A DNA stretch of 60,706 nt, filler included. It is 5 parts of 5 records of this genome, joined end to end, with 100 filler letters (N's around TTAATTAATTAA, not from the genome) between each part and the next. Parts side by side here need not be neighbours in the genome. Positions count along the whole stretch, not along the records: positions 1 to 21,799 come from SRR31156797_2337; 4 more parts are not named here. One strand, written 5' to 3'. Under the pieces are notes generated by a model. That model saw only the letters and a program-made list of their open reading frames with translations. It did not search any database and was not told where the DNA came from. Below, piece after piece: positions 13,209 to 55,272 of the stretch. Made by a program: the position numbers and the translations under genes. Within the stretch, counting starts at the first letter, position 1, and each line of letters opens with the position of its first letter.

Positions 13209-13964
13209 TTAAAATCTAAACGATAAATGAATCCCCGAAGGTGCAGAAACCAGTCTAAATCCTTTTCTATGTCTCACAAAACACTGTTCTCCATTCGAAT
13301 AGTAAACATTCCCATGATGAGTAATTCTGTGACAGTTGTCCGGGATATTAGAAAAATAGATTGAACTAGGAGGATCAACCACTACAAATCCTATTTCTGG
13401 ATAAAATCGATAATAAAAACCATCTGAAAAATAGAAATCTCCATGTCTGTGTCGAATCACAACTGGTTCACAAGCAAATCTTACAACAACATCGCCATAT
13501 CTTGAATGATGATAACAATTGTGACCGTAATCATTGTAATAATGACGATACTTATGATGTGGATAAACATGCTTGTAATGATGCTTATGATTGTGCTTAT
13601 AATGGTACCCGTTATGATGTTTGCTATAATGCTTACTGGAATAATGTCCATTATTATAGGAACCATGGTTTTTATGATGCTTGTTATAATGCTTTGATTG
13701 AGAGTGTCTGTAATGACTAGATTTGTTCTTTTTTCCTCGGTATGAATGATCATGAGAATGTCGTTTTCTATCAGAATAATTACTCTTATTGTGCTTATCC
13801 TTCTGATTGTATTCTCTTAATCGCTTTGTTTTATTGCGCTCTTCGTATCGATATCTATTGTCATCATTCGATCTTCTTTGCGCACTAACTGTATAACTCG
13901 ATGCTATTATTGCTGATCCCAGTACTATACCGGTTATCATCTTATAAAATGCGGATTTTCTCAT
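13209..13964 (-). CDS. Exported His/Tyr/Lys-rich protein (DUF6515-like C-terminus)
   Basis: Signal peptide, long low-complexity H/K/Y/R tract, C-terminal duplicated YY..G..Y....G(F/Y)VVV..P beta-hairpin units. Confidence 0.7.
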   Translation of the reverse strand: MRKSAFYKMITGIVLGSAIIASSYTVSAQRRSNDDNRYRYEERNKTKRLREYNQKDKHNKSNYSDRKRHSHDHSYRGKKNKSSHYRHSQSKHYNKHHKNHGSYNNGHYSSKHYSKHHNGYHYKHNHKHHYKHVYPHHKYRHYYNDYGHNCYHHSRYGDVVVRFACEPVVIRHRHGDFYFSDGFYYRFYPEIGFVVVDPPSSIYFSNIPDNCHRITHHGNVYYSNGEQCFVRHRKGFRLVSAPSGIHLSFRF

Positions 13965-14189: not shown

Positions 14190-15527
14190 CTAATTTAAAT
14201 TGATTGTAGTTGATTTCTTATACTTTTTGCTAGCTCTATCGGTAAAACTTCTTTTTTTGGGTCGAATCAATACTCGTAATGACTGATCGGAAGTAAAATA
14301 ATTCCAAACCCAGTTGATTAAAATAAAGAATCGGTTTTTCACACCAACAATTGCCATTAAATGAACGAACAACCAAAGTACCCAAGCAATAAATCCTTGC
14401 ATTTTCATTCCAGGTAAATCGGCAACCGCAAGATTCTTTCCAATGGTTGCAAGCGATCCTCTATCCTTATAATGAAATGGTTTTGCTTTACTATTTTTAA
14501 GTTGATTTTTTAAATTCTTTGCCAGATTTCCAGCCTGCTGTAAGCCAACTTGTGCAACCTGCGGATGTCCATTTTGAAAATCACCTTCCTGTTGAAATGC
14601 CAAATCACCAATTGCATACACATTTTTCAAACCTGAGATCTTATTAAATAAGTCTACTCGAAGTCTTCCTCCTCTAGTTGCTGCAATTTCGGATATTCCT
14701 TTTATTGGGCGTGCAGATACTCCTGCTGCCCACACTAAAGTGTATGAGAAAAATTCTTCTCCATCTGCCAGGTTAATTTTTAATCCATCGTAATCGGCAA
14801 CTCTTGCTTCAGTCTTTACAATTACGCCTAATTTCTCCAAATAAGATTTTGCCTTGGTAGATGCATTCTCAGACATACCATTCAATAGTCGATCCGATGC
14901 CTCGAATAGGTACACGTTCATTAAAGAAAAATCCAATTCGGGATAATCTTTTGGTAAAATTTCGCTTTTCATTTCTGCTAAAGCTCCAGCCAATTCAACT
15001 CCTGTAGGTCCACCTCCTACCAGTACAATATTCATGTAATTTGCTGCCTTTTGAGGATCCGATTCGTTTAAAGCTTTTTCGTAGTTTCTTAAAATTGAAT
15101 TCCTCAGAAAAATTGCTTCAGAAACCGATTTCATAGGAATAGCAAATTCCTCAATATTCTTATTCCCAAAATAATTTGTATCAACACCAGTTGCCAAAAC
15201 TAAATGATCATACGTTAACTTTCCCAATGTTGTATAAATCTCCTGAGTATTGGTGTTCACTTCTAATAGATCTGCCATTCTGAAATGAACATTACTTCTC
15301 TTCTGGAATATTTTACGCAACGGGAAGGCAATTGAACTTGGCTCTAAACCTGATGTTGCCACCTGATAAAATAAGGGTTGAAACTGGTGAAAATTATTTT
15401 TATCAATCACCACCACCTGATATTTTGTTTTAGCCAATTGTCTTGCCAATTTTAATCCGGCGAAACCACCTCCAACAATTACAATTCTTGTTTTCCCATT
15501 TTCGGGTATGTGTTTTATGGTATCCAT
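14190..15527 (-). CDS. ndh: Type II NADH:quinone oxidoreductase (NDH-2)
   Basis: GGGFAG FAD motif, FQPLFYQVAT, GGGPTGVELAG, AIGD, C-terminal amphipathic helix. Confidence 0.92.
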   Translation of the reverse strand: MDTIKHIPENGKTRIVIVGGGFAGLKLARQLAKTKYQVVVIDKNNFHQFQPLFYQVATSGLEPSSIAFPLRKIFQKRSNVHFRMADLLEVNTNTQEIYTTLGKLTYDHLVLATGVDTNYFGNKNIEEFAIPMKSVSEAIFLRNSILRNYEKALNESDPQKAANYMNIVLVGGGPTGVELAGALAEMKSEILPKDYPELDFSLMNVYLFEASDRLLNGMSENASTKAKSYLEKLGVIVKTEARVADYDGLKINLADGEEFFSYTLVWAAGVSARPIKGISEIAATRGGRLRVDLFNKISGLKNVYAIGDLAFQQEGDFQNGHPQVAQVGLQQAGNLAKNLKNQLKNSKAKPFHYKDRGSLATIGKNLAVADLPGMKMQGFIAWVLWLFVHLMAIVGVKNRFFILINWVWNYFTSDQSLRVLIRPKKRSFTDRASKKYKKSTTINLN

Positions 15528-15719
15528 TTCTGTATTTGTAATAAGTAAATCATTAGATATAAGACTAAACCTTATCTATTCAGATTTAAGACTCTTTTAT
15601 CTTTTACAAATTAAAGAATTATTTCTTTAATATTCTAATACACTTGAAATTTCAACCGATTGCGAGGGAAAATTTATTCTAAGAGCAATAAAATTCCAGT
15701 TCATTTACCAAATCGGGAA

Positions 15720-16117
15720 CCAATTTTTAACCAATGGAAGGTTTAAACCAATGAATGGATAACTAATTAAAGTCAATTTTATCGTGAGACCTGGCAAGTG
15801 CACCATCACACCTCCCGGTGGAATGCTTTTACCTGTCAATGCTTCTCTCAGACCAAAAAAATGCATTATGAGATCTCCCATCTGCAATGCATTTATTAAC
15901 ATGTAGCTTGCAGATATCAACATATACCCTGCATTTACTTAGTCTTACCATGCAGATGACAGGTCTCACGGTGCGGTTATCAAGACTGACGGTGCAGATA
16001 TTAACAATGAGCATGCAGATGGCAGGTCTTACGGTGTACTTATTAACAATGAGGGCTACTTTAACAGGTCTCACAAGAACATTGGCAGGTCTCTCGAGTA
16101 CATCGATAGAAATAAAT
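15720..16117. repeat. Bidirectional array of degenerate 21-bp units diverging from ~15887
   Basis: About 10 units on + from 15887 (e.g. ATGCAGATGACAGGTCTCACG at 15950, ATGCAGATGGCAGGTCTTACG at 16013) and 5 or more inverted units on - (TTGCAGATGGGAGATCTCATA, GTGCACTTGCCAGGTCTCACG). Confidence 0.8.
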
Positions 16118-16135
16118 GGTATCTATTCAATAAAT

Positions 16136-16172
16136 AAAAAACGGGTTACAAAATGAACTTGCAACCCGCTTT
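16136..16172 (-). terminator. Intrinsic terminator after the GH20 gene (possibly bidirectional)
   Basis: CGGGTTACAA...TTGCAACCCG hairpin flanked by A and T runs. Confidence 0.7.
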
Positions 16173-16202
16173 ACTATTTTTAACCTGTATATCGATATAC
16201 CA

Positions 16203-18527
16203 TTAATGATATAAAACAGAGGGATCAATCTCTTTAAAAGTTTTATTGTTATCAAGCATTTTAAGTTGCAGAGTTCCACCTCCACCTCCTTCAATATAAT
16301 CTAAGTTCAAAAGATGAAAGCCTTTAGCCAAGGCAATTTGACCGGTTTTTAATTTAGGTGCATGCATTCCATCATTATCTATAACAAGCTCTCCTCCTAT
16401 TTTTAACACACCCGCATCATCGCATAGTAAAGAAAAAGTATATACATCATCCTTTTTTATTTTCAAGTAGGTTCTATACTTTAATGCAAAACTAGTTTTT
16501 CTCTTCGTAGCTGCCTCGGGCAAATCTATCCCAGGTAATATGTATTTGCCTTTTTCAATATCTTTTACTCCAATATCAGATACATCAACCCAACTATTTC
16601 CTTCAAAATAAACACATTCGACTCCTGGTTTAGCAGAATCTAGTTCAACCGGTACGAATGGCTTTTGCTTATTAAAATTAGCTGTAAGCACATCCCCACC
16701 AATTCCTGCTTTACTAAAAGGTCTAGCTGCAAAGCTTGTGGTTTCATTAATTGCAATTGCACCAACATACAATTGAGAATTTTTAGTTGGTTTTGTTCCA
16801 TCCAAAGTATATCTTATTTCCTGATTTTCGATCTGAGATGTTAATTGGATTGTATCGGTACTTATAAATACCTGCGAATCATAGAGCCCCCCAATATCAG
16901 GAATTCGATAATTTACACCCATAATATCCAATCGATCAAAATGAGACCCCATTCTATTAAAAAAATCATCCCAACTCTTCTCATCTTTTGGTGTCCATAA
17001 GGCTTCTGAAAGAGCAAGAATTCTAGGCATTGCCATATAATCAGCTCTTGCTTCTGAAGGAATATATTCGGTCCATATATTTCCCTGTCCTCCTAATATA
17101 TGACTTGCTTCCTCTTCAGTTAATCCTTCTGGGACTGGTTCAAAACTGTATAAATGTTCCAGAGTTCCTTTGTCTTGTTGATGATCGAAATAGCAATGAG
17201 TAGTTGGTGACATGATCACATCATTTCCTTGCTGTACTGCTTTATTTGGAACATCAGGAATCCATCCTCTCCAATACATCATTGTAGCACTTTCGCTCAT
17301 TCCTCCTTCAAGAATTTCATCCCAACCAATCATTTTCTTTCCCTTTGAGTTAATGAACTTTTCGATACGATGAACAAAATAGCTTTGCAATTCATGCTCA
17401 TCAGAGAGTTTTTCACTCCTGATCTTAGCCTGGCACTTCTTACATTTTTTCCAGTTGGTTTTCTCAACCTCATCGGCACCAATATGCACATACGGAGATG
17501 GAAACAGTTCCATAACTTCAGACAAGATATCTTCGACCAATTGGTAAGCTTTTTCGTTCCCTGCACAAAGTGGAGAAGAGAATGTATGTCCCCAATCTGG
17601 TTTTCCAAAACAGGAAACATCCGAACAATTATCAATAGCAGCTTTAAAATGTCCTGGCATATCAATTTCAGGTACAACCATGATATTGCGAGCAGAGGCA
17701 TAAGCCACAATCTCTTTTATATCCTCCTGTGTATAAAATCCGCCATAAAGCTTCTTTCCATTTACCTCTTGATACAATTCAGGAGTAATTTCAAAATCCG
17801 GATTTTCCTTCGCGCGCTTCATGCATTCCTTATCGTGATTGTTTGCTTCACGAAAGGCACCATTAGCTGTTAATTCAGGATATTTCTTAATTTCTATTCT
17901 CCATCCTTGATCATCCGTTAAATGCCAATGAAACCTATTCATCTTATACAATGCCATATAATCAAGAAAACGCTTAATGTACTCCTTCGAAAAGAAATGA
18001 CGTGATACATCGAAATGCATCCCACGCCATGCAAATCTTGGCTCATCTTTAATTAAAACATTAGGGATAATCCAATTGGTAATACTTGAATTCTTTAATT
18101 CAATCTCATTAGGCAATAACTGTCGGATGCTTTGTGTACCTATAAATAAGCCTCTTTTAGAACTTCCTGTAAGTTTTACTTTATTAGAATTTACATCAAG
18201 AATATAAGCTTCAGGGTTTTCACTTATTGTTCTATCAATCTTCAGCTCAATCACATTCCTATCTTTAACCTTATCAGTAATTTCAAGAGGAAAACCCGTT
18301 GCATTTCTTAACTGAGAAAGAAAAACCTTAGTTTGTTCGTATATCTCTTCATTGTTTTCTGACATCCAAACAGATGTGTTTGCATCAATCTGAAAACCAC
18401 CAGTATGGATTTGCAACTCAACTGGTGCAGGAATTATGGATACTGGATAAGTCTTAGATTCTTTCTGATTACAAGCTGAAATAATAAGAAAGAGAGCACA
18501 GGTAAGAATTATGAAATGGTTTTTCAT
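16203..18527 (-). CDS. GH20 beta-N-acetylhexosaminidase lipoprotein with Fn3-associated/CHB_HEX and PA14 domains
   Basis: Lipobox ISAC; DVSRHF, HLTDDQGWR, PEIDMPGH, HIGADE catalytic motif; YTLDG..P and CDDAG..IDNDG C-terminal domains. Confidence 0.93.
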   Translation of the reverse strand: MKNHFIILTCALFLIISACNQKESKTYPVSIIPAPVELQIHTGGFQIDANTSVWMSENNEEIYEQTKVFLSQLRNATGFPLEITDKVKDRNVIELKIDRTISENPEAYILDVNSNKVKLTGSSKRGLFIGTQSIRQLLPNEIELKNSSITNWIIPNVLIKDEPRFAWRGMHFDVSRHFFSKEYIKRFLDYMALYKMNRFHWHLTDDQGWRIEIKKYPELTANGAFREANNHDKECMKRAKENPDFEITPELYQEVNGKKLYGGFYTQEDIKEIVAYASARNIMVVPEIDMPGHFKAAIDNCSDVSCFGKPDWGHTFSSPLCAGNEKAYQLVEDILSEVMELFPSPYVHIGADEVEKTNWKKCKKCQAKIRSEKLSDEHELQSYFVHRIEKFINSKGKKMIGWDEILEGGMSESATMMYWRGWIPDVPNKAVQQGNDVIMSPTTHCYFDHQQDKGTLEHLYSFEPVPEGLTEEEASHILGGQGNIWTEYIPSEARADYMAMPRILALSEALWTPKDEKSWDDFFNRMGSHFDRLDIMGVNYRIPDIGGLYDSQVFISTDTIQLTSQIENQEIRYTLDGTKPTKNSQLYVGAIAINETTSFAARPFSKAGIGGDVLTANFNKQKPFVPVELDSAKPGVECVYFEGNSWVDVSDIGVKDIEKGKYILPGIDLPEAATKRKTSFALKYRTYLKIKKDDVYTFSLLCDDAGVLKIGGELVIDNDGMHAPKLKTGQIALAKGFHLLNLDYIEGGGGGTLQLKMLDNNKTFKEIDPSVLYH

Positions 18528-18642
18528 TACTTTAATTTATAGGTTTCAGGTATATAAATAAAAACTAGGAATTCATTCTTGAAGAACATAAATGTAAGTA
18601 TTTTTTGAGTTCGAAGGAATGGGAATTGATTACTTTAATTAT

Positions 18643-18688
18643 ATAAGAAACCCGAAATGCGAACTAATCACATTTCGGGTTTATCTTA
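18643..18688 (-). terminator. Intrinsic terminator after the RidA-family gene
   Basis: AAACCCGAAATG...CATTTCGGGTTT inverted repeat. Confidence 0.75.
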
Positions 18689-18704
18689 TTAATTGATATC
18701 TGAT

Positions 18705-19055
18705 TTATTTCTTAGCAGCGACAACTGACATTTCAACCAATAATTCAGGACGAGCCATGCGAGCTTCGACACAAGCACGTGCTGGTTGGTAGCCATCAAC
18801 AACCCACGCATCCCAAACTTCATTCATAGCTGCGAAATCTTTCATATCGCGAACATAGATAGTTACAGATAGGATGTGTTTTTTATCTGATCCTGCTTTT
18901 TCTAATAGTTCTTCTACTTTCTCTAAGGTGGTAACGGTTTGCTCCTTAATATCTGTGTTAGCATCTTTTGCAGTTTGCCCACATAAATAGATAGTATTCC
19001 CGTGTTCTACAATACGACTCATTCTTGGAGTCGAATCCATTCTTTTGATTGTCAT
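18705..19055 (-). CDS. RidA/YjgF family protein (YoaB-like)
   Basis: [18 protein letters not shown] and [21 protein letters not shown] motifs. Confidence 0.9.
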
Positions 19056-19113
19056 TTTGGTATGTGTTTACGTTATTTTGTTGGGCGAAGATATAAAAAA
19101 GAAATATTTCTCA

Positions 19114-19144
19114 GACCTGTCAGGTTTTAAAAACCTGGCAGGTC
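19114..19144. repeat. REP-like palindrome GACCTGTCAGGTTTTAAAAACCTGGCAGGTC
   Basis: 31-bp near-perfect inverted repeat in which each arm is itself palindromic (ACCTGnCAGGT); resembles repeats recalled from Bacteroidota intergenic DNA. Confidence 0.7.
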
Positions 19145-19153
19145 GAGTATAAC

Positions 19154-19189
19154 AAAAAAATGCCGTTCCAAATCATTGGAACGGCATTT
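19154..19189 (-). terminator. Intrinsic terminator after valS
   Basis: AAATGCCGTTCCAA...TTGGAACGGCATTT with an A7 run (U-tail on -). Confidence 0.8.
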
Positions 19190-19212
19190 ATATATTAAGA
19201 GTTATTCTCTTC

Positions 19213-21799
19213 TTACTTCATACTAGCAATGCGATCTTCCAAAACTTTAATTTTAGCTTCAGCATCAGCCATTTTCTTTTTCTCAATCTCGATTACTTTA
19301 GCTGGAGCATTGTTTACAAAACGCTCGTTGCTCATTTTCTTCTGAACTGATTTTAAGAACCCTTGAGTGTATTTCAACTCATCTTCCATCTTCTTGATCT
19401 CTTCTTCAACGTTAACCAAATCGCCAAGAGGAATGAAATACTCAATTGCATTTACAATGAACGACATTGCACCAGCCATTTCACCATTTGCAGTTGAGAT
19501 TTCTTTCAGGTTACACATTTTAGCCACAACACAATCGAAAGAAGCATCGTAATTATCTCCTTTTGCTTTATAGTTCATTTCTAAAACTTCCTTAAAGGCA
19601 ATGTTCTTCTGCTTACGGATGTTACGAACAGCTACAATCACTTCTTTTACCTGCTCAAACTTCACTAATAAATTAGCATCGTATGAATCTGGCTTAGGCA
19701 TAACTGAAACCATGATACTATCCTCATCAGAACGATCGGCAAGCAATTGCCAGATTTCCTCTGTTAAGAAAGGCATGAACGGGTGTAGCAACTGCATCAA
19801 CTTCTCGAAAAGAGCAACAGTTGAATCGAAGGTTTTCTTATCGATAGGCTGCTGATAAGCTGGCTTCACCATTTCTAAATACCATGATGAGAATTCATCG
19901 CGGAATAAAGTATAAACAGTCATTAAAGCCTCGCTGATACGATATTGCTTGAACTGCTCATCCAATTGCTCCATTGTGTTATTCAAACGAGCATGGAATA
20001 CTTCAGTTGCAATTCGTGCATATTCTGGTTGCTCGATATCGGCAACTTCCCAACCTTTCACCAAACGGAAAGCATTCCAAATCTTAGTTGTAAAGTTACG
20101 TCCCTGCTCAGGTAAGTTCTCGTTGAAAAGCAAGTCTCCACCAGCTGGCGAACACAATAACATACCTACACGAACACCATCAGCACCATATTTTGCAATT
20201 AGATCTAATGGATCTGGCGAGTTTCCTAATGACTTAGACATCTTACGTCCAATCTCATCACGAACAATACCAGTCAAATAAACGTTAGAAAATGGTTTTT
20301 CACCTCTGTATTCATATCCTGCAATTACCATACGAGCAATCCAAAAGAATAGAATATCTGGTCCTGAAACCAAATCGTTAGTTGGGTAATAGTATTTGAT
20401 CTCCTCGTTTTCAGGATTACGAATACCATCAAATACAGAAAGAGGCCACAACCATGACGAGAACCAAGTATCTAGTACATCCTCATCTTGACGTAAATCT
20501 TCTGCTTTATATGATTTTCCTGTTTTAGCAGTAGCTGCAACAAGAGCTTCTTCAATAGTTTTAGCCACTACATAACCACCTTCTGGTAAATAGTAAACAG
20601 GAATACGCTGTCCCCACCATAGCTGACGAGAAATACACCAGTCTTTTACATTTTCCATCCAGTGACGGTAAGTGTTCTTGAACTTAGCCGGGTGCAACTG
20701 AATATCGTCATTCATTACGTGCTCCAAAGCTGGCTCAGCCAATTCCTTCATATTTAGGAACCACTGCATACTTAACTTAGGCTCAATAACAGCATCCGTT
20801 CTTTCCGAGAAACCTACTTTGTTCACATAGTCTTCAATCTTAACCATGTTTCCAGCTTTCTCAAGATCTGGAAGAATCAAGTCACGAACTTCGAAACGAT
20901 CTTTACCAATATAAAGCTGTGCAGCTTCACTCATGGTTCCATTATCGTTGAAAATATCAATCGACTCAAGATTATGACGATCACCAATTTCGTAGTCATG
21001 AATATCGTGAGCAGGTGTAATTTTTAAAGCACCAGTACCAAACTCCATATCTACGTACTCATCCTCGATAATAGGAATAGAACGATTCACCAAAGGAACG
21101 ATACAACGCTTGCCTCTTAAATGTGCAAAACGCTCATCTTTTGGGTTGATACAAACTGCAGTATCACCTAAAATTGTTTCAGGACGAGTTGTTGCAATCG
21201 TAATATAATCCTCAGTACCTTCAACCTGATATCTTAGATAGTAAAGTTTTGATTGTAGTTCTTTGTGAATAACCTCCTCATCAGAAACAGCTGTTTGTGC
21301 AGATGGATCCCAGTTCACCATACGAACACCACGATAGATTTTATCTTTATTATACAGATCGATAAATACATCGATTACTGAATCGTAAAGAGATTCATCC
21401 ATTGTAAAAGCAGTACGCTCCCAATCGCAAGATGCACCTAATTTCTTTAGCTGCTCTAAAATGATACCACCGTGCTTCTCTTTCCATTCCCAGGCATGCT
21501 CCATAAACTCATCGCGAGTAATGTCATCCTTAGAAATACCTTCTTCTCTAAGTTTGTTTACAACCTTAGCTTCTGTAGCAATTGATGCATGATCGGTTCC
21601 TGGTACCCAACAGACATTCTTTCCCTGCAATCTGGCTCTGCGGACCAATACATCTTGAATTGTATTGTTTAGCATATGCCCCATGTGTAACACACCGGTG
21701 ACGTTTGGTGGCGGAATTACAATTGTATACGCCTCTCTCTCGTCTGGTACTGAGTGGAAGAATCCTTTATCCATCCAATACTTATACCACTTGTCCTCC
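19213..21799 (-). CDS. valS: Valine--tRNA ligase, 5' end cut by the contig end
   Basis: PPPNVTG.LHMGH (HIGH) and KMSKS motifs, C-terminal coiled coil; the frame is open to the gap ([10 protein letters not shown]). Confidence 0.97.
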
Positions 21800-21899
21800 N
21801 NNNNNNNNNNNNNNNNNNNNNNNNNNNNNNNNNNNNNNNNNNNTTAATTAATTAANNNNNNNNNNNNNNNNNNNNNNNNNNNNNNNNNNNNNNNNNNNN
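21800..21899. other. Artificial contig-joining spacer (N44-TTAATTAATTAA-N44)
   Basis: Identical 100-nt spacer with stops in all six frames; base composition changes abruptly across it. Confidence 0.97.
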
Positions 21900-26147: not shown

Positions 26148-27446
26148 CTATTCCCCCCAATTCTCGGCGGTCTTCTTGAAAACCTGAACGACCGCATCGA
26201 CCACCCGATCCGCCTCGTCGAATGTCAGAATGAATGGCGGCGAAAACGAAACACGGTGCCACTTGGCACTGATCAGGATGCCGTGTTCGTTCATCATCGT
26301 CTGAAAAAGCGTTTCCCCGAACTTGGGCATGCGCGGGCATTTGTATTCCAGCGAAAACAGGCTGCCGCGCCCGCGAATTTCACGGAAAAACGGATGATCG
26401 CCCAAGCCGTCGGCAAGGCGTTTTCGCATGTGCAAACCCAGGGCGTTGACGTGATCCAGCGTTTCCGGGCGATGCACGACCTTCTGCACCGCCAACGCCG
26501 CCGCGACGCCCAGCGAAAACCCCTGGAAGGTATGGCCGATCTGTACCCGACCCTGGCCCGCCGCGATGACATCCTGGAACTTGCTTTTGGTCAGCACCGC
26601 ATTCAGCGGCACATAGCCGGCGGCCAGCGTTTTGCCGAGACAAAGAAAATCCGGCGTAACGCCGTCCCAGGAACAGCAATAGATCTTGCCGCTTCGGCCC
26701 AGCCCGCAATAGACCTCGTCCAGGATCAAATGCACGTCGTGGCGGTCACAGACCTCGCGCACGTATTTCCAGTATCCGGGTGCCGGCGGCACATCGCCGA
26801 CCAGGCCGCCCATGATGGTTTCGCCGATAAAGGCGCAAACCTTGTCGGCCCCGATCTCAAGGATCTTGTCCTCGAGTTCCTTGGCCGAGCGCCGTGCATA
26901 GTCGTCCGGGCTTTCCCCCGGACGCATTTCATGAAGCGGATGATGTTGCGAAATGCGGGCCCGGTTCGCCGGCAGCAACGGATTGAAGAATTCGAAGATG
27001 TCCTTTTCCGAAACCGCCAGGCTGTGAAGGGTGGAACCATGGAACCCCTGTTTGCGGGATATGAACCATGTTTTTTCCCTCTTGCCCGCGTCGTGGTGCG
27101 CCTGATAGCTGAGCTTGAGGGCCGCCTCGATGGACTCGCTTCCCGAACACCCCGCGAAATAAACCTTGTCCAGCCCTTTCGGCGCCTGCGAAACCAACAG
27201 TTCCGACAGTTCATCCAGCTCGTGGGTGCGCCAGGAATTGTAGTCCATATGGGTGAAGCGCTTCATTTGCGCTTCCATGGCGCTCAAGACCTCGGGGTGG
27301 GAAAAACCCAAAATCGCGTGCGAGCACGTTCCGGCCGTGACATCCAACAATTTGCGGCCGTCTTCCGTGAAGATGTAGGCGCCTTCGGCCCGCGACACAT
27401 AGGGCGGCGCCGGGTGATTCGGGAATTTTTCAAGAATGCGGCTCAT
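26148..27446 (-). CDS. Class III PLP-dependent aminotransferase; start revised to ATG at 27446
   Basis: FHGST, LILDEVYCGLGRSG, PDFLCLGKTLAAGY, GHTF motifs. Confidence 0.9.
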   Translation of the reverse strand: MSRILEKFPNHPAPPYVSRAEGAYIFTEDGRKLLDVTAGTCSHAILGFSHPEVLSAMEAQMKRFTHMDYNSWRTHELDELSELLVSQAPKGLDKVYFAGCSGSESIEAALKLSYQAHHDAGKREKTWFISRKQGFHGSTLHSLAVSEKDIFEFFNPLLPANRARISQHHPLHEMRPGESPDDYARRSAKELEDKILEIGADKVCAFIGETIMGGLVGDVPPAPGYWKYVREVCDRHDVHLILDEVYCGLGRSGKIYCCSWDGVTPDFLCLGKTLAAGYVPLNAVLTKSKFQDVIAAGQGRVQIGHTFQGFSLGVAAALAVQKVVHRPETLDHVNALGLHMRKRLADGLGDHPFFREIRGRGSLFSLEYKCPRMPKFGETLFQTMMNEHGILISAKWHRVSFSPPFILTFDEADRVVDAVVQVFKKTAENWGE

Positions 27447-27542
27447 GGGCGTTTCGTCCTTCTGGGCTTCGACAACGCAGTCATGAAAACCTTCTGGCTT
27501 CCGGCCATAACCTAGCATGCCGCTCCGCCGTGGCCAAAGCTC

Positions 27543-29087
27543 CTAAGCCGTATCGGGATCGGCCAGAAGTTCCGGATGAGCCTTCAGGAAAGCGCGCGAC
27601 ACCCGCGGCGAGAAGCCGAAACCGAAGATATCGACTCGGGAAGCAAATTTTTTCTGAAGTTGCTCGTCCTCTTCCGAATAGCAAGCCGTGCCTTCCAAAC
27701 GGTCCAGCATTTCCTCGACGGTCGCCCGAATTTCATCGGCACTGTTGTCGATGACCTCCAATCCGCGATCTTCATAGAAGGCCGAAAAAATCTGTGCAAA
27801 AACCGGCGTTTTTGCAATCTCGGCCCAGGAAAGGTTTCGATCCTCGTCTTTTTTGTACAGCAGCTTATGTGCCAGCAAGACGTCCCGCGAGTGCGGCCAG
27901 GACCACATGGGAAAGGAGTTGGTCAAGGCGATGGGCACACCAAAAGCATGGGAGACGCGTTGCGGCCCCGAAGTCGTGCCGAAATAAAACCTGGCCGCCG
28001 CCATGCAGTATATGTCGAGCCAATCGCTCTTGGCTTCGCAATGGGCATAATCGATGACGTTCGGCATATCGGGTAGACGAGTCATCGTTGGATCGCCGAT
28101 GCGAACGACCCAGCCGCCCCGGCCGGTCACTGCTTCGATGGCGGCGAAATAATCATCCACTCGACCATTGCGATGGCGGTTGTGGCTCCATTCAACGCCT
28201 TCGCTATGGAAACCTGAATCGCGCACCTGCAAACAGGCAAACCAAGCGCCATCGGGAAGCCCAAGCTTGCAAAGCGCGGCCTCGCCTTTCCTTCGATGAT
28301 CGTCTTTGAGCGTCAGCAGGGGCGGCCGCCCCTCGGCCTCCCAGCGCGGCTGCACGACCCAGCAGGCAATATCGCGATTCAAGGTCAGTCCGTCTGAAAC
28401 CGTCAGAAAATCCAGATTATAGCGGCGCTCGACGAGCCAATCCTCGGCATGCCTGATTTCCGCCGGGTCCGACAGTATTTCGATATGATCCCGCCAATAA
28501 TCCAACAGGCACGGATTGACAACATATTCGGCGGGCGCCAGAAGGATGGCGCGAAAATCCTCGATCAGCCCCAGTTTGCGCGCCTTGACGAACAAATCCA
28601 GTTTGTGAATGGCCTCGCCGATATGGGTACAGACCACCTTGTTCGGAACCAACAGCCTTGTGTCGGGTTCACCCCTTTCCGCAGCCAATTTCTTGGCTCT
28701 TACCGATGCCATATCAACCGACGAGCCGAACAGGCCGGAAGCCCGTTCGAGGTCGCCCATATAAAAACTCAAATAGCCGAGCTCGAGCGCTATTTCCTCG
28801 GGATGCCAGCCGATCAGACTGGAGAATATCTCCCAGGCCTCCTGAAATTCACCTTTCAACGTGCAAATCTGTGCCAGGCGAAACAGCAACGGCGGCCGCT
28901 CGTCTTCCCGGACGTTGAGGCTAAGCGCCTTCCTTAAATAGGGTTCCGCCAACAGGACGAAATTCTTCCGGGTCGAACAGTAAAGGCCCATATCCCGGTT
29001 CGCCACATAGCCGTCGGGATCTGCCTCGACGGCTTTCCAAAGCCGGGTGCGTGTGGCCAAACCGACAACTTCGTCATTTTCGCTCAT
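27543..29087 (-). CDS. TIGR04372-family putative glycosyltransferase with N-terminal TPR (copy 1)
   Basis: FACLQVRDSGFH...RNG..DY..AI.....GGWVVRIGDP.M..LP....VIDY...FGTTSGP...DNS.DEI. Confidence 0.8.
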   Translation of the reverse strand: MSENDEVVGLATRTRLWKAVEADPDGYVANRDMGLYCSTRKNFVLLAEPYLRKALSLNVREDERPPLLFRLAQICTLKGEFQEAWEIFSSLIGWHPEEIALELGYLSFYMGDLERASGLFGSSVDMASVRAKKLAAERGEPDTRLLVPNKVVCTHIGEAIHKLDLFVKARKLGLIEDFRAILLAPAEYVVNPCLLDYWRDHIEILSDPAEIRHAEDWLVERRYNLDFLTVSDGLTLNRDIACWVVQPRWEAEGRPPLLTLKDDHRRKGEAALCKLGLPDGAWFACLQVRDSGFHSEGVEWSHNRHRNGRVDDYFAAIEAVTGRGGWVVRIGDPTMTRLPDMPNVIDYAHCEAKSDWLDIYCMAAARFYFGTTSGPQRVSHAFGVPIALTNSFPMWSWPHSRDVLLAHKLLYKKDEDRNLSWAEIAKTPVFAQIFSAFYEDRGLEVIDNSADEIRATVEEMLDRLEGTACYSEEDEQLQKKFASRVDIFGFGFSPRVSRAFLKAHPELLADPDTA

Positions 29088-30648
29088 AGCTCAATCCCGC
29101 CAATCCGATCAGTTCCGGATGGGCATTGAGGAAGTTACGCGCAATATTGATGGATACGCCAAAATTCATTGGATCGACAACCCTGGCGAAAGCCCGCTGT
29201 CGCTCCTTGTCGCCTTCGGACAAAGAGATGGTGCCATCCAAACGGTCCAGAAGATCGGTCACGGTGCCCAGAATTTCTTCCGGCGTGTTGTCGACTACTT
29301 CGATTCCGGTGTTCTCAAACACAGTCGGGAATATCTGTGTAAACGTCGGATTATCCAATGCTTCGGCCAATGGAATCAAACGACCTGTCCGTTTCTCTCG
29401 CAACAATTTATGGGCCAGCACGACGGTGCCTGCATGTGGCCAGTTCCAAAGCGGGAAGGCGTTGCTCAGGGCGATCGGAACGTCATAGGCGCCGGCCACC
29501 ATTAGGGGACCCGAAGTCGTTCCAAAGAACAGCCTCGCTCCGGCGATACAAAAAATGTCGAGCCAATCCTCCTGGGCATCACACCGGGCATAGTCGATCA
29601 CGTTGGGCATATCCGGCAGGGCGGTCATGGTCGAATCGCCGATGCGCACGACCCAGCCGCCGCGACGGGTGATTTCCCGGACAGCCGGCATATAGTCCAC
29701 CAGTTTTCCGTTTCGGAGCCGGTTGTGGCTCCAGGCCACTTGTTCACTGTGGTACCCGCCCTCGCGGACGTGAAGGCACGCGAACCAGACATCTTCCGGC
29801 AATCCCAATTTGCTGAGAGCCTTTCGGCCGCGCCCACGCTGCGCCTCCGTCAAGACCAGAAGCGGCGGCCGCCCTTCGGCCTGCCAACGTTGTTGAACCC
29901 ACCAATAGGCCAAGTCCCGGTTGACGGTCCGTCCGTCAGGCAGGGTCATGAAGTCGAGATTGAATCGCCGCTCGGACAGGCGTTCGCTCTCGGCTCGAAC
30001 CTTGTCCGGATCGGTAACGATGTCGATATGGTCGCTCCAGGCTTCCAGCAGGAAACGATTAATGACGAATTCGGAAGGCGCCATAAGGATGGCGCGGAAG
30101 TCTTCAATCAGCCCCAATTTTTTCGCTTTGACGAACAGATCCAGCTTGTGAATGGTTTCGCCGATATGCGTGCAGACGACCTTGTTGGGCACCAGTTGCC
30201 GAACATCGGGCTCGCCCTTTTCCGCCGCCAGGGCCCTGGCCCGCACCGCCATCATATCTAGAGCCGAGCGAAACATACCCGATGCCAGATCGAAGTCGCC
30301 CTTGAAATAACTAAGGTCTCCGAGTTCGAAGGCGATTTCCTCGGGCGCCCAATTGACCAGGTCGGCAAGAATGTTCCAGGCGTCCTGGAATTCGCCTTTC
30401 ATTTTGTGGATTTGCGCCAGCCGGAATAGCAGGTGCGGCCTTTCCGGTGTGTTCAGATCGTGGGCCAGGGCTTTTTTCAGATAAGGTTCCGCCAGGAGGG
30501 CGTAGTTTTTCCGGGTCGAACAGTAAAGCCCCATGTCCCGGTTCGCTATATAGCCGTCAGGGTCTGCTTCCACGGCTTTCCAAAGCCGGGTGCGGGTGGC
30601 CAAACCGACGACTTCAACCGTTCCTTCCTTGTCGGTATGTTCGATCAT
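29074..30648 (-). CDS. TIGR04372-family putative glycosyltransferase with N-terminal TPR (copy 2); start revised to ATG at 30648
   Basis: Same motifs; N-terminus aligns with copies 1 and 3 from VVGLATRTRLW; 14-nt overlap with copy 1. Confidence 0.8.
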   Translation of the reverse strand: MIEHTDKEGTVEVVGLATRTRLWKAVEADPDGYIANRDMGLYCSTRKNYALLAEPYLKKALAHDLNTPERPHLLFRLAQIHKMKGEFQDAWNILADLVNWAPEEIAFELGDLSYFKGDFDLASGMFRSALDMMAVRARALAAEKGEPDVRQLVPNKVVCTHIGETIHKLDLFVKAKKLGLIEDFRAILMAPSEFVINRFLLEAWSDHIDIVTDPDKVRAESERLSERRFNLDFMTLPDGRTVNRDLAYWWVQQRWQAEGRPPLLVLTEAQRGRGRKALSKLGLPEDVWFACLHVREGGYHSEQVAWSHNRLRNGKLVDYMPAVREITRRGGWVVRIGDSTMTALPDMPNVIDYARCDAQEDWLDIFCIAGARLFFGTTSGPLMVAGAYDVPIALSNAFPLWNWPHAGTVVLAHKLLREKRTGRLIPLAEALDNPTFTQIFPTVFENTGIEVVDNTPEEILGTVTDLLDRLDGTISLSEGDKERQRAFARVVDPMNFGVSINIARNFLNAHPELIGLAGLSYERK

Positions 30649-30856
30649 CGATCGCCGGTCTTCCAAACTTCGTGCTCCCTCGCCGGCCCAACCAAGCGGA
30701 TTTCCCATTACGCAACAGGATCCCGGCGCTCCCGAAATTACCAGGCTGGACCACGATCTCCATTGGCCGGCCTGACCGGCACATTGATTGCTAAGTAGCG
30801 AGAGTACGGCAATAATCGCCGAAGGTGAAGAAAACTGGCTTACAGCGGAGAAACCG

Positions 30857-32026
30857 ATGGATAGCGATTCAGTTCCGGAGGCGGTTGATTTCGACAAATC
30901 CTCTGGCGTGAGCTGTCCGCTTTGCGGCAGTGACGAAATTCAATCCTATACCCTTCCGTTTCGAAGCATTCGGCACATGGATTTCGGTTGGCATTCGCGG
31001 AACAACCACATGTTAAACCAGTGTTCGACCTGCGCCATGATTTTCGGCGACCTCGCGCAGAATCTCTCCTCGTATTTTGGCGCTCCCGAATACGCCCATT
31101 CCTATCACTCGGAAGTACACGTGCATCTGAAGGACAGGGCCGAGGCCGTTTCCAATCATTTTCTGCAGGCCGGCATGGTCAGCGAACACATGCGGGCGAA
31201 TACCCCGCGAATACTCGATATCGGATGTTTCGACGGCAGGTTTCTGATCGAATTGAAGCGACAGTTCGAAACGTGCCAACTGTGCGGGCTCGATGTCTCT
31301 CCCCACATCGGACAGATGTTCCCAAAACAAACCGGTTTTGAGTTTTTTCAAGGGGATATCGACAAGACAACCGGAACCTTCGATGCCGTTACCTTCTTCG
31401 ATTCTCCGGTCTATATCCGCGACCTGCCCGGATGCTTGAAAACAATCGCCGGCAAACTGAACCCCGGCGGTTTTGTGTTTTTCATGGCACCCGATTCGTC
31501 AAGAAACCGGACGACCACCCTGCTCGGCGATCAATTCTATTATTTCACCCCCACCAACACCCTCAATCTGATGGCTGAATCGGATTTCGAAGCGCTACCG
31601 ATCGATATCGATGCCACATTTCCGAGACATCTGGCATTCCTGGCGAAACCCGCATCCAAGCCGGTTGCCTTGGCCAAGAACGTTGACCGGTCGGCCGAGG
31701 AAGCGAGCTCCTATTTGAACACCTTCCGGGACGAATTGGAGCGGTTCGTCGGTGAATGGGATGAAAAATATGTGGGTATGGGCCGACTTGGCGTTTTAGG
31801 CACCAAACACAATGCCGCCGCGGCAAAAGCCGTACTCGGCAGCCGGATTGACTTCTTTGCCGATGAAACCCCGCATACCAATGGCGCTTTGTTTCACGGC
31901 ATGCCGGTGATTCATCCATCGGAATTGGAAGCGACCGATATGCTGGTCCTCCCGTATGGCCACTCCGCTGCCGCCATAGCCGAACGATTGCAGAGCCAAT
32001 ACGCCTTTCAGGTATTTCCCGTCTAA
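30857..32026 (+). CDS. Class I SAM-dependent methyltransferase with N-terminal Zn-binding motif (sugar C-methyltransferase-like)
   Basis: CPLC...CSTC, ILDIGCFDG, LNPGGFVF; RBS GGAG before the ATG at 30857. Confidence 0.8.
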   Translation: MDSDSVPEAVDFDKSSGVSCPLCGSDEIQSYTLPFRSIRHMDFGWHSRNNHMLNQCSTCAMIFGDLAQNLSSYFGAPEYAHSYHSEVHVHLKDRAEAVSNHFLQAGMVSEHMRANTPRILDIGCFDGRFLIELKRQFETCQLCGLDVSPHIGQMFPKQTGFEFFQGDIDKTTGTFDAVTFFDSPVYIRDLPGCLKTIAGKLNPGGFVFFMAPDSSRNRTTTLLGDQFYYFTPTNTLNLMAESDFEALPIDIDATFPRHLAFLAKPASKPVALAKNVDRSAEEASSYLNTFRDELERFVGEWDEKYVGMGRLGVLGTKHNAAAAKAVLGSRIDFFADETPHTNGALFHGMPVIHPSELEATDMLVLPYGHSAAAIAERLQSQYAFQVFPV

Positions 32027-33576
32027 GACGCGATCGAGCGGAATTCGTTGCCAATCAATTCGGGGTGCTTTCGTAAAAACCGGGATGCCATGCGCACCGT
32101 AAAACCGAACCCGAAAGGATCGATGGCCGAGGCATAGGCCGCTTGCCGTTGTTCTTCTATTCGCGTGTAGGTCGCCGTTCCATCGAGACGATCCATCAGT
32201 TCCTCGACCGTCGCCAGGATTTCGTCCGGGCTGTTGTCGACCACATCAAATCCGGCGCGTTCGAAGATTTTCGGAAAAATCTGGGTGTATTCGGGCGTTT
32301 GCAAAGCTTCGGCAATGGAAACGGTCGCCCCGTCCGACCTTCGCCGTAAAAGCTTGTGGGCCATCACGACGTGGCCGCCGTGTAGCCAACTCCACAACGG
32401 GAATGCATTGCTCAGGGCGACGGGCACACCGAACGCACTGGCAACCATCAACGGCCCCGATGTCGTCCCAAAGAAAAGACGAGCCCCGGCGATACAGTAA
32501 ACATCCATCCAATCGGTTTTTTCGGATTTCGTCAGATCAATTACATGCGGGATCGCGGGCAACGCCGTCATCGAAGGATCGCCAATCCGAACCACCCATC
32601 CGCCTTTCGATGTCACATGTTCGATCGCTGCCAGATAGTCCTGAAGTTGGCCGTTGCGGTGACGGTTGTGGCTCCACGCCACATTTTCACTGTGATACCC
32701 GTCCTCGCGGACATGCAGGCATGCGAACCAGGCGTCTTCGGGCATTCCAAGCTGGCTCAGAGCATGTCTTCCGCGGTTACGGTGTTCCGGTTTAAGTGTC
32801 AGCAAGGGTGCTCTTTTTTGTTCATGCCAGCGTTGCTGGACAATCCAGTAGGCGATGTCACGGTTATAAGCGAGCCCGTCCGGCATCTGGTAATAGTCAA
32901 GATTGAACAGGCCGCCGCCATGCACATTTTGCATTTGATCGGCATATTCTCGCTCGTCGACGATTGGCAGGTAGTCGCGCCAGTAGTCCATTAGGCACGG
33001 ATTGGCGATTTTCGCGCTATCGACGATCAACAGGGGGCTGAAGGGTTCAACCCACCCCAATTCGCGCGCCTTTACGAACAGGTCCAGTTTGTGGATGGTT
33101 TCTCCGATATGCGTATAGACCACTTTGTTCGGCACAAGGGTACGAGTGTCGTATCCGTCGGTTTTTTCCCTGGCATACTGGGCTTGCAGTTCGATCGTCT
33201 TCAAGGCGGTAGCGTAAAGGGGTGAAGCCGCTTCCGGCCCCACCTTGATGGACTGGATGTCACCAAGTTCAAAGGCGCTTTCGATCAACAGGTTCTTGCT
33301 GGCTTCGGAAAACGCCTCCCACGCCTTGTCGAATTCGCCTGATGCCTTGTAAACCCCGCCAAGCTTCAATAGAAGCCAGGATCGTTCCGCCTTGTCGTCG
33401 ATATCGAAAGTGAGGGCTTTTCGCAGATAGGGTTCTGCAAGAAGAACCATGTTCTTCATTCTGGCACAATAAAGGCCCATGTCCCGATTGGCCTCGTAGT
33501 CATCGGGATTGGCTTCCACGGCATTCCAAAGCCCGGTGCGTGTGGTCAAACCGACAACATCGTCATCTTTGCTCAT
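32023..33576 (-). CDS. TIGR04372-family putative glycosyltransferase with N-terminal TPR (copy 3)
   Basis: Same motif set; LVPNKVV.THIGETIHKLDLFVKA shared with copies 1 and 2. Confidence 0.8.
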   Translation of the reverse strand: MSKDDDVVGLTTRTGLWNAVEANPDDYEANRDMGLYCARMKNMVLLAEPYLRKALTFDIDDKAERSWLLLKLGGVYKASGEFDKAWEAFSEASKNLLIESAFELGDIQSIKVGPEAASPLYATALKTIELQAQYAREKTDGYDTRTLVPNKVVYTHIGETIHKLDLFVKARELGWVEPFSPLLIVDSAKIANPCLMDYWRDYLPIVDEREYADQMQNVHGGGLFNLDYYQMPDGLAYNRDIAYWIVQQRWHEQKRAPLLTLKPEHRNRGRHALSQLGMPEDAWFACLHVREDGYHSENVAWSHNRHRNGQLQDYLAAIEHVTSKGGWVVRIGDPSMTALPAIPHVIDLTKSEKTDWMDVYCIAGARLFFGTTSGPLMVASAFGVPVALSNAFPLWSWLHGGHVVMAHKLLRRRSDGATVSIAEALQTPEYTQIFPKIFERAGFDVVDNSPDEILATVEELMDRLDGTATYTRIEEQRQAAYASAIDPFGFGFTVRMASRFLRKHPELIGNEFRSIAS

Positions 33577-34863: not shown

Positions 34864-34963
34864 NNNNNNNNNNNNNNNNNNNNNNNNNNNNNNNNNNNNN
34901 NNNNNNNTTAATTAATTAANNNNNNNNNNNNNNNNNNNNNNNNNNNNNNNNNNNNNNNNNNNN
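34864..34963. other. Artificial contig-joining spacer
   Basis: N44-TTAATTAATTAA-N44. Confidence 0.97.
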
Positions 34964-48597: not shown

Positions 48598-48697
48598 NNN
48601 NNNNNNNNNNNNNNNNNNNNNNNNNNNNNNNNNNNNNNNNNTTAATTAATTAANNNNNNNNNNNNNNNNNNNNNNNNNNNNNNNNNNNNNNNNNNNN
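48598..48697. other. Artificial contig-joining spacer
   Basis: N44-TTAATTAATTAA-N44. Confidence 0.97.
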
Positions 48698-55172: not shown

Positions 55173-55272
55173 NNNNNNNNNNNNNNNNNNNNNNNNNNNN
55201 NNNNNNNNNNNNNNNNTTAATTAATTAANNNNNNNNNNNNNNNNNNNNNNNNNNNNNNNNNNNNNNNNNNNN
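55173..55272. other. Artificial contig-joining spacer
   Basis: N44-TTAATTAATTAA-N44. Confidence 0.97.

Follow-up and report, generated by a model that had tools for sequence, protein, structure and literature searches.

What is the head-to-head array of 21-bp units that lies between ndh and a GH20 hexosaminidase gene, and why is it there? The window, by which we mean the whole stretch of 60,706 nucleotides that was analysed, consists of five unrelated fragments (GC content 0.34–0.56) joined by N spacers at 21800-21899, 34864-34963, 48598-48697 and 55173-55272. The organism studied is the source of positions 1-21799 only, and the array sits in that first fragment. Its ndh protein is 95% identical to the counterpart in a Marinifilum record (L001), and family comparisons for the array were based on the genomes of relatives. 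The array is an orphan member of an apparently undescribed class of gene-linked arrays. The features of the locus are as follows:

14190..15527, minus strand: ndh, type II NADH dehydrogenase (Pfam PF07992 and PF22366), a flanking gene outside the element
15580..15700, minus strand: conserved block upstream of ndh, seen as invariant alignment columns; putative promoter region
15783..15887, minus strand: diverged "weak" left arm, five A-subtype 21-bp units reading outward from the centre
15883..15891, no strand: central dyad TGCA-A-TGCA, seen in the sequence
15887..16096, plus strand: conserved "strong" right arm, ten head-to-tail 21-bp units, from profile and alignment
16138..16172, minus strand: intrinsic terminator of the GH20 gene, from a terminator scan (minus strand only)
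16203..18527, minus strand: GH20 hexosaminidase gene (Pfam PF00728), variable cargo of the interval, outside the element

The head-to-head 21-bp repeat is confirmed. All ten units of the right arm fall at 15887+21n exactly as first listed, and autocorrelation within 15887-16096 reaches 0.54–0.57 at lags 21, 42 and 63, against a maximum of 0.40 at any lag among 2000 shuffles. Leftwards, the minus strand carries five units from 15887 down to 15783, scoring 10.6, 10.1, 8.3, 4.7 and 22.8 bits with a profile derived from 30 other copies only; their sum of 56.6 bits compares with -17.7 bits for the best five-unit background in the rest of the fragment. The first units of both arms have base 15887 in common. 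The array had originally been drawn at 15720..16117, where it is indeed present, but its true span is narrower (15783-16096), the profile scoring -8.6 to 0.6 over 15720-15782 and -6 over 16097-16117. Tandem Repeats Finder, proposed as a check, recovered part of it (15894-15933 only). Contigs of three sequencing runs over the array show neither joint nor inversion, and one contig of run X3 has a whole-unit insertion behind 16012.

The two interleaving unit subtypes described in the earlier note are real, and they are unequally divided between the arms, with the TTAAC subtype making up 17/250 left-arm vs 128/282 right-arm units across the family. In the window the right arm reads B B hybrid A B B A B A A, and the family order, BBAA-BBAA-B-AA, amounts to an 84-bp higher-order repeat. 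The weak arm has five units here, compared with eight or more in most other copies. Just outside this shortened arm lies a two-copy 17-nt direct repeat (15725-15758), which among the loci viewed is common to L001 only.

Both arms are open in the unit frame, as had been claimed:

15887..16156, plus strand: heptad ORF of 89 codons, regarded as a side effect of the repeat
15705..15923, minus strand: heptad ORF of 72 codons, regarded as a side effect of the repeat

We nevertheless judge the array to be non-coding, with the heptad ORFs as probable by-products of the repeat. In six frames and nine close pairs, pN/pS was 0.73–1.15 in the right arm and 0.71–0.96 in the left, compared with 0.02–0.13 (five pairs) in the P0002 gene described below; the proposed check of codon-position bias thus yields a synonymous bias in no frame (0.71–1.15). 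The suggestion of a pair of divergent heptad-repeat mini-proteins could draw on the openness of right-arm frame +1, where 32 copies have 2 stops among 1974 codons, and on P0001, a single gene-caller prediction that is the sole protein match for the heptad ORF (1 match among 122 candidates). However, pN/pS is near 1 in every frame and other copies contain stops, the left-arm frame having 21 in 1750 codons; base 12 of the unit, a third codon position, is 96% invariant while first positions vary; other arrays of the family are open on either strand or on neither; and the parallel arrays upstream of DUF6261 genes have periods of 41 bp, which cannot be codon repeats. Right-arm stops do fall below column shuffles (2 vs 11–12 in frame +1, 5 vs 14–22 in frame -2), probably because the shuffles mix unit subtypes and so inflate the null. 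We find mini-proteins hardly credible, and annotators should note that a heptad ORF predicted on an array of this kind is probably spurious.

Nor is the array a CRISPR locus, as was stated at the outset: it has regular short repeats in common with CRISPR arrays, but its 21-bp units are contiguous, unique spacers being found in CRISPR alone; there is no Rfam CRISPR match, and no cas-like gene among the flanking ORFs. It is placed upstream of the conserved ndh block at 15580..15700, which is also present in relatives lacking the array. The GH20 gene on its other side is found within the RidA-ndh interval at 2 of 18 close loci. The terminator at 16138..16172 has T runs on both sides and could, from its sequence, also end a plus-strand transcript. 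The ValS-RidA-ndh interval as a whole (window 15528-19213; L002-L017 and L047) is an insertion hot spot, its cargo differing between relatives (GH20, array, short ORF, other inserts), and the GH20 gene is found on one side of the array in the window and on the other in L014.

The array region has a 93% match in L001 and matches of about 70% in L007, L009, L011 and L014, and belongs to a dispersed Marinifilaceae family present in 11/97 genomes, most Marinifilaceae being without it. Copies are always intergenic and occupy 1–10 loci per genome (two to ten in the best-covered genomes). A phylum-wide scan with the unit pattern matched 4/401 genomes, namely G001 and three chance matches to single 7-bp repeats, and found no array elsewhere among the 401; in viral contigs neither the unit pattern nor P0002 relatives were found. 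Six of 21 matches in a metagenome pattern scan were real arrays, all Marinifilum-like, and the other 15 were chance. We oriented 33 copies, 32 of which entered the statistics, G003j being left out for want of a centre. In all copies one arm is conserved and starts with a nearly invariant B-type unit, while the other is diverged and consists almost wholly of A-type units; no part of the family varies less than the first right-arm unit (per-unit consensus, 32 copies), and the conserved unit skeleton is A5, T8, A12, A19. Thirteen copies align across 400 columns with gaps of whole units only, and the orthologous copy L081 carries one extra unit relative to the window. Four orthologous sites account for most copies, namely ndh/RidA, gdh, folD and a position upstream of an orphan gene; G003 has additional ones. 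On the complete chromosome G003:C1, whose GC-skew minimum is near 2.08 Mb, all ten array loci, several of them not independent, are in the origin-proximal half (0.93–3.05 Mb). A separate repeated element of ~270 bp, 94–99% identical among the G003 flanks L092, L095, L090, L093 and L101, is probably an IS end; it abuts several arrays and splits the RidA-ndh locus.

Eight of the 33 copies point to a home for the family. Their centres lie about 490–499 bp (about 497 bp) before P0002, a solitary gene for an uncharacterised 235-aa helical-bundle protein; in the comparison of genomes the centre is 489–562 bp before the ATG. The P0002 subfamily occurs in 13/97 genomes, the array in 11/97 and both in 10, a count which is not independent evidence of association since the genomes are related. 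In the three P0002 genomes without this array, its place before the gene is taken by arrays of another sequence; in G053 the array is present and the family gene was not found. From its close relative G001, the organism of the window presumably has a P0002 gene as well. Beyond this subfamily, a 21/42-bp periodic tract (≥0.50) precedes 32 of 45 scorable P0002-family loci (47 given minus 2 too short), compared with 1/43 downstream controls; these comprise 17/18 Marinifilaceae loci, which are not independent, and 15/27 elsewhere in the order, leaving 13/45 without a clear upstream array. The arrays of the family are mutually unrelated in sequence and often have inverted arms.

The predicted structure of P0002 is a confident long helical bundle (pLDDT 86.7), with no Pfam match and no recognisable DNA-binding domain. 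Foldseek with this model returned no match at E 0.001, and the best VIA match, LemA (Z 10.4), is within the range common for helical bundles; PADLOC gave no matches and PHROGs weak unknowns only. NCBIfam PQLLE (NF052641) matches 10/14 proteins weakly, the best score of 37.7 bits, over most of the length, staying below the curated cut-off of 80, so that P0002 is a distant relative at most. The family forms 1210 clusters at 50% identity and is mostly acidic (74% of 187 members have a pI under 6); C-terminal Ig-like domains occur in 5 of 21 members scanned, three of them over the cut-off. Genes neighbouring the family loci differ from genome to genome, and no conserved partner gene was seen near them by eye.

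A parallel case is provided by DUF6261 (PF19775). P0002 has an ESM feature score of 0.87 to a cluster in which 32% are DUF6261, and hhalign of DUF6261 against the P0002 family gives a probability of 25% (E 7.6e-4, 60 columns). Among 25 DUF6261 loci examined, drawn from 31 matches after partial ones were dropped, 17 have locus-specific upstream arrays of 40–42 bp, nine with a period of 41 and one of 40 (10/17 not divisible by three). In both classes a phased array specific to its locus precedes a solitary gene for a helical protein, and both occur in G001; the DUF6261 arrays differ in their period of 40–42 and in their internal palindromes. Three DUF6261-linked arrays of G001 are seen in the upstream regions L268-L296. 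A literature search, mostly of papers outside subscription journals, found no published description of either the 21-bp or the DUF6261 arrays.

Away from its home, the array is kept under constraint. Twenty-five of the 33 copies, the window's included, have no P0002-family gene, and three profiles detected no remnant of one near any of the 25. Between the window and L081 the right arm differs at 5/210 positions (0.024), against pS values of 0.073 for GH20 and 0.377 for ndh. In other orphan pairs right-arm divergence was 0.095 vs neighbouring pS of 0.34–0.38, 0.079 vs 0.16–0.39 and 0.124 vs 0.52, with a further pair at 0.058; pS across these pairs was 0.16–0.52, two CPBP-gene values being left out because of indels. 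The exception is G002b/G065d, where a right-arm divergence of 0.228 exceeds the neighbouring pS (0.13–0.19); this excess indicates that arrays can be replaced wholesale, and the pair looks replaced. Orthologous orphans are 93–95% identical, compared with 71–89% to the gene-linked copy of their own genome, so that conversion from a master copy is no explanation. Gene-less second copies of two other array types are also found in genomes with their gene, and orphaning is therefore a general trait of the class. In the left arm, the window and L081 differ at 18 of 104 nt. A diversity-generating retroelement was considered for this variable arm and rejected, as in most pairs the arm diverges no faster than synonymous sites nearby and the window/L081 changes are, by eye, not confined to adenines.

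The orphans might instead be a non-autonomous mobile minisatellite, BrickBuilt- or REPIN-like, which split off from the gene cassette and is functionless at orphan sites, a REP-associated tyrosine transposase or recombination having copied it and gene conversion keeping the copies similar. The earlier note had offered a mobile element among its readings, and that proposal is partly supported: the copies are dispersed and always intergenic; L005, L006 and L047 have a short RidA-ndh interval with nothing in it (L008 and L003 have other cargo there); and a REP-type palindrome lies 181–227 bp from the centre, on the weak side, in 12/33 copies at three unrelated loci, 10 of the 12 having at most 4 mismatches. 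In G003, moreover, four copies at different loci are 89–98% identical in both arms, which shows recent copying or conversion. Other results speak against it. The similarity of these four copies fades gradually at both ends, with neither terminal inverted repeats nor a sharp boundary or target duplication, and at the ndh-GH20 interval, where relatives were to be compared, empty sites were found with no evident duplication, the comparison being with distant relatives only. No REP lies beside the window's copy or 20 others. Orphan right arms are more conserved than synonymous sites, orthologues are closer than paralogues outside G003, Y1 transposases occur in 48/97 genomes including non-carriers, and a fixed period across unrelated array sequences is left unexplained. 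A functionless mobile minisatellite therefore seems to us unlikely, while REP/RAYT-assisted copying of some orphans is plausible. REPs of the array-adjacent type number 15 in G002, and 15 or fewer per genome in five genomes. A Y1-transposase-like gene, below the Pfam cut-off, is flanked by related REPs in G002:C2 (L298 1608-2265) and is interrupted at the DNA level by REP palindromes.

The closest published system is BrickBuilt of Porphyromonas gingivalis, which with MITE464/PgRS represents the minisatellite MITEs of that species (PMC4596501). These too are intergenic multi-locus tandem repeats of Bacteroidales (23 nt; 41 nt) without spacers, which expand and contract by whole units at loci common to relatives (PMC4596501). 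BrickBuilt repeats all run in one direction, leader and tail segments accompany them, and the terminal inverted repeats are of IS5 type (PMC4596501); the 21-bp array, by contrast, is head-to-head, lacks terminal repeats and target duplication, and has its home upstream of one protein family. The array is thus multi-copy, intergenic and without a transposase, as a MITE is, but without IS-matching terminal inverted repeats, sharp ends or target-site duplication. With REP, BIME and REPIN elements and their RAYTs, in the features outlined in two accounts (PMC6006769, PMC3733652), it has in common a dispersed, extragenic, mosaic and inverted arrangement, and a GTAG-type REP abuts 12/33 copies. It differs in that its units are not palindromic GTAG-footed hairpins, in having at most about 10 copies, and in its strict 21-bp phase and gene linkage. 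The unit consensus contains no GTAG/CGTC-footed palindrome in inverted doublets, and the repeats on either side of the Y1-like gene belong to the neighbouring REP type and are not 21-bp units.

Three features together point to an array on which protein assembles at the DNA level: unrelated sequences keep a fixed period of two or four helical turns, the arms read outwards from a dyad, and the arrays lie upstream of promoters. We suggest, giving it roughly an even chance, that the array is a helically phased multi-site protein-binding element and that its orphan copies are extra sites for a trans-acting factor, possibly P0002. A pitch of 21 bp, two helical turns, would display the repeated sites on one face of the helix, and a protein would load at the central dyad and assemble cooperatively outwards along both arms. 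The home position is about 270–500 bp upstream of a solitary P0002-family gene, each P0002 subfamily having its own array sequence, and the copy in the window is a gene-less version of the P0002-cognate array, placed upstream of the putative ndh promoter. Since the orphans are kept under sequence constraint, they would most likely be additional sites for the same trans factor, with a role in regulating the next promoter or in chromosome organisation. Both protein binding and an effect on neighbouring genes are inferred. By linkage P0002 would be the first candidate for the binder, against which stand the acidity of the family, its lack of a known DNA-binding fold and its unusual Ig-like domains.

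Phased repeats that bind proteins are familiar from partition and operator arrays and from iterons, such as parC-ParR of R1, sopC-SopB of F and the omega heptads of pSM19035. Like the array, these have helically phased repeats in front of a possible binder's gene, in two blocks around a centre, with extra copies elsewhere. The 21-bp array differs in being chromosomal, with no Par, Rep or ribbon-helix-helix gene, and in its link to an acidic long helical bundle. Phased repeats beside the gene of a possible binder are present at the P0002 locus and not at the window locus, where the neighbours are unrelated chromosomal genes, with no adjacent Par or Rep gene and no plasmid or phage location.

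A more specific binder was also considered. B-type units contain TTAT(T/C)AACA, a DnaA-box-like 9-mer, and the arrays could titrate or recycle DnaA in the manner of datA or DARS. Several such 9-mers are found in the candidate origin of G003 near the GC-skew minimum, and all ten G003 loci lie within about 1.15 Mb of it. A C-to-A change at box position 6 is tolerated by the DnaA of another phylum, according to one study (PMC5043019). Yet 39 occurrences in 440 kb show that the 9-mer is not rare, A units are equally conserved without it, most arrays of the family have no such motif and the array is absent from most Marinifilaceae, so that we rate DnaA titration as very improbable. The candidate replication origin itself (L258 4216-5052; G003:C1 about 2,064,200-2,065,050) lies between rpiB and a response regulator/ruvB; it is rich in TTATCAACA-type 9-mers and far from dnaA (4.17 Mb). 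The recognition helix of G003 DnaA reads DHATVLHA.

The constraint on one arm only would also suit a single-stranded product. The right arm could be a small non-coding RNA of about 250–290 nt that starts at the centre and ends with the terminator (16138-16172); its 21-nt units would act as scaffold or guide for the cognate helical protein, and the orphans would be extra RNA genes. In most orphans the right arm faces the 3' end of a convergent gene, and the region forms a better fold than shuffled sequence does (z -4.5 and -4.4), although good folding of single copies is expected of any inverted array. The conserved folded RNA suggested earlier finds no support as a long hairpin, nor any covariation: pairing of weak with strong arm is 0.487 within a copy vs 0.476 with other copies, weak arms swapped between copies give similar energies in most cases, and the consensus fold reaches just -10.2 kcal/mol with a covariation term of -0.15. 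Rfam returned 7 weak matches, none near its gathering score, and no terminator was found between array and gene at the gene-linked locus L089. An unstructured or protein-bound RNA would be compatible with these results. We hold an RNA gene to be improbable, and prefer the phased protein-binding element.

Conserved arrays away from the gene, before housekeeping promoters, are unlikely to be merely the operator of an adjacent gene, and what this locus adds is that a cognate array also has conserved orphan copies. A large unannotated protein family is tied to arrays that keep a constant period of two helical turns through complete changes of sequence. A bolder possibility, which we regard as rather doubtful, is an undescribed and widespread two-part system in which rod-like helical proteins each read a cognate array of fixed 21-bp pitch and freely changing sequence, as DNA or RNA, with cognate arrays seeded elsewhere as docking sites for each paralogue; if true, such a nucleic-acid scaffold or reader, adaptable in sequence, would be of a new type. 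Binding could be tested directly and on a small scale in cultured Marinifilum strains, which carry a single gene alongside three or four orphan arrays cognate to it.

Two further observations concern other parts of the window. Downstream of ndh, 13209-13964 encodes a histidine-rich DUF6515 protein of 251 aa, with a low-complexity middle part that is variable among relatives. In the second fragment, 26151-33576 holds three similar ORFs of 514–544 aa that have an N-terminal motif in common and are surrounded by radical-SAM and sugar-modifying-like genes.
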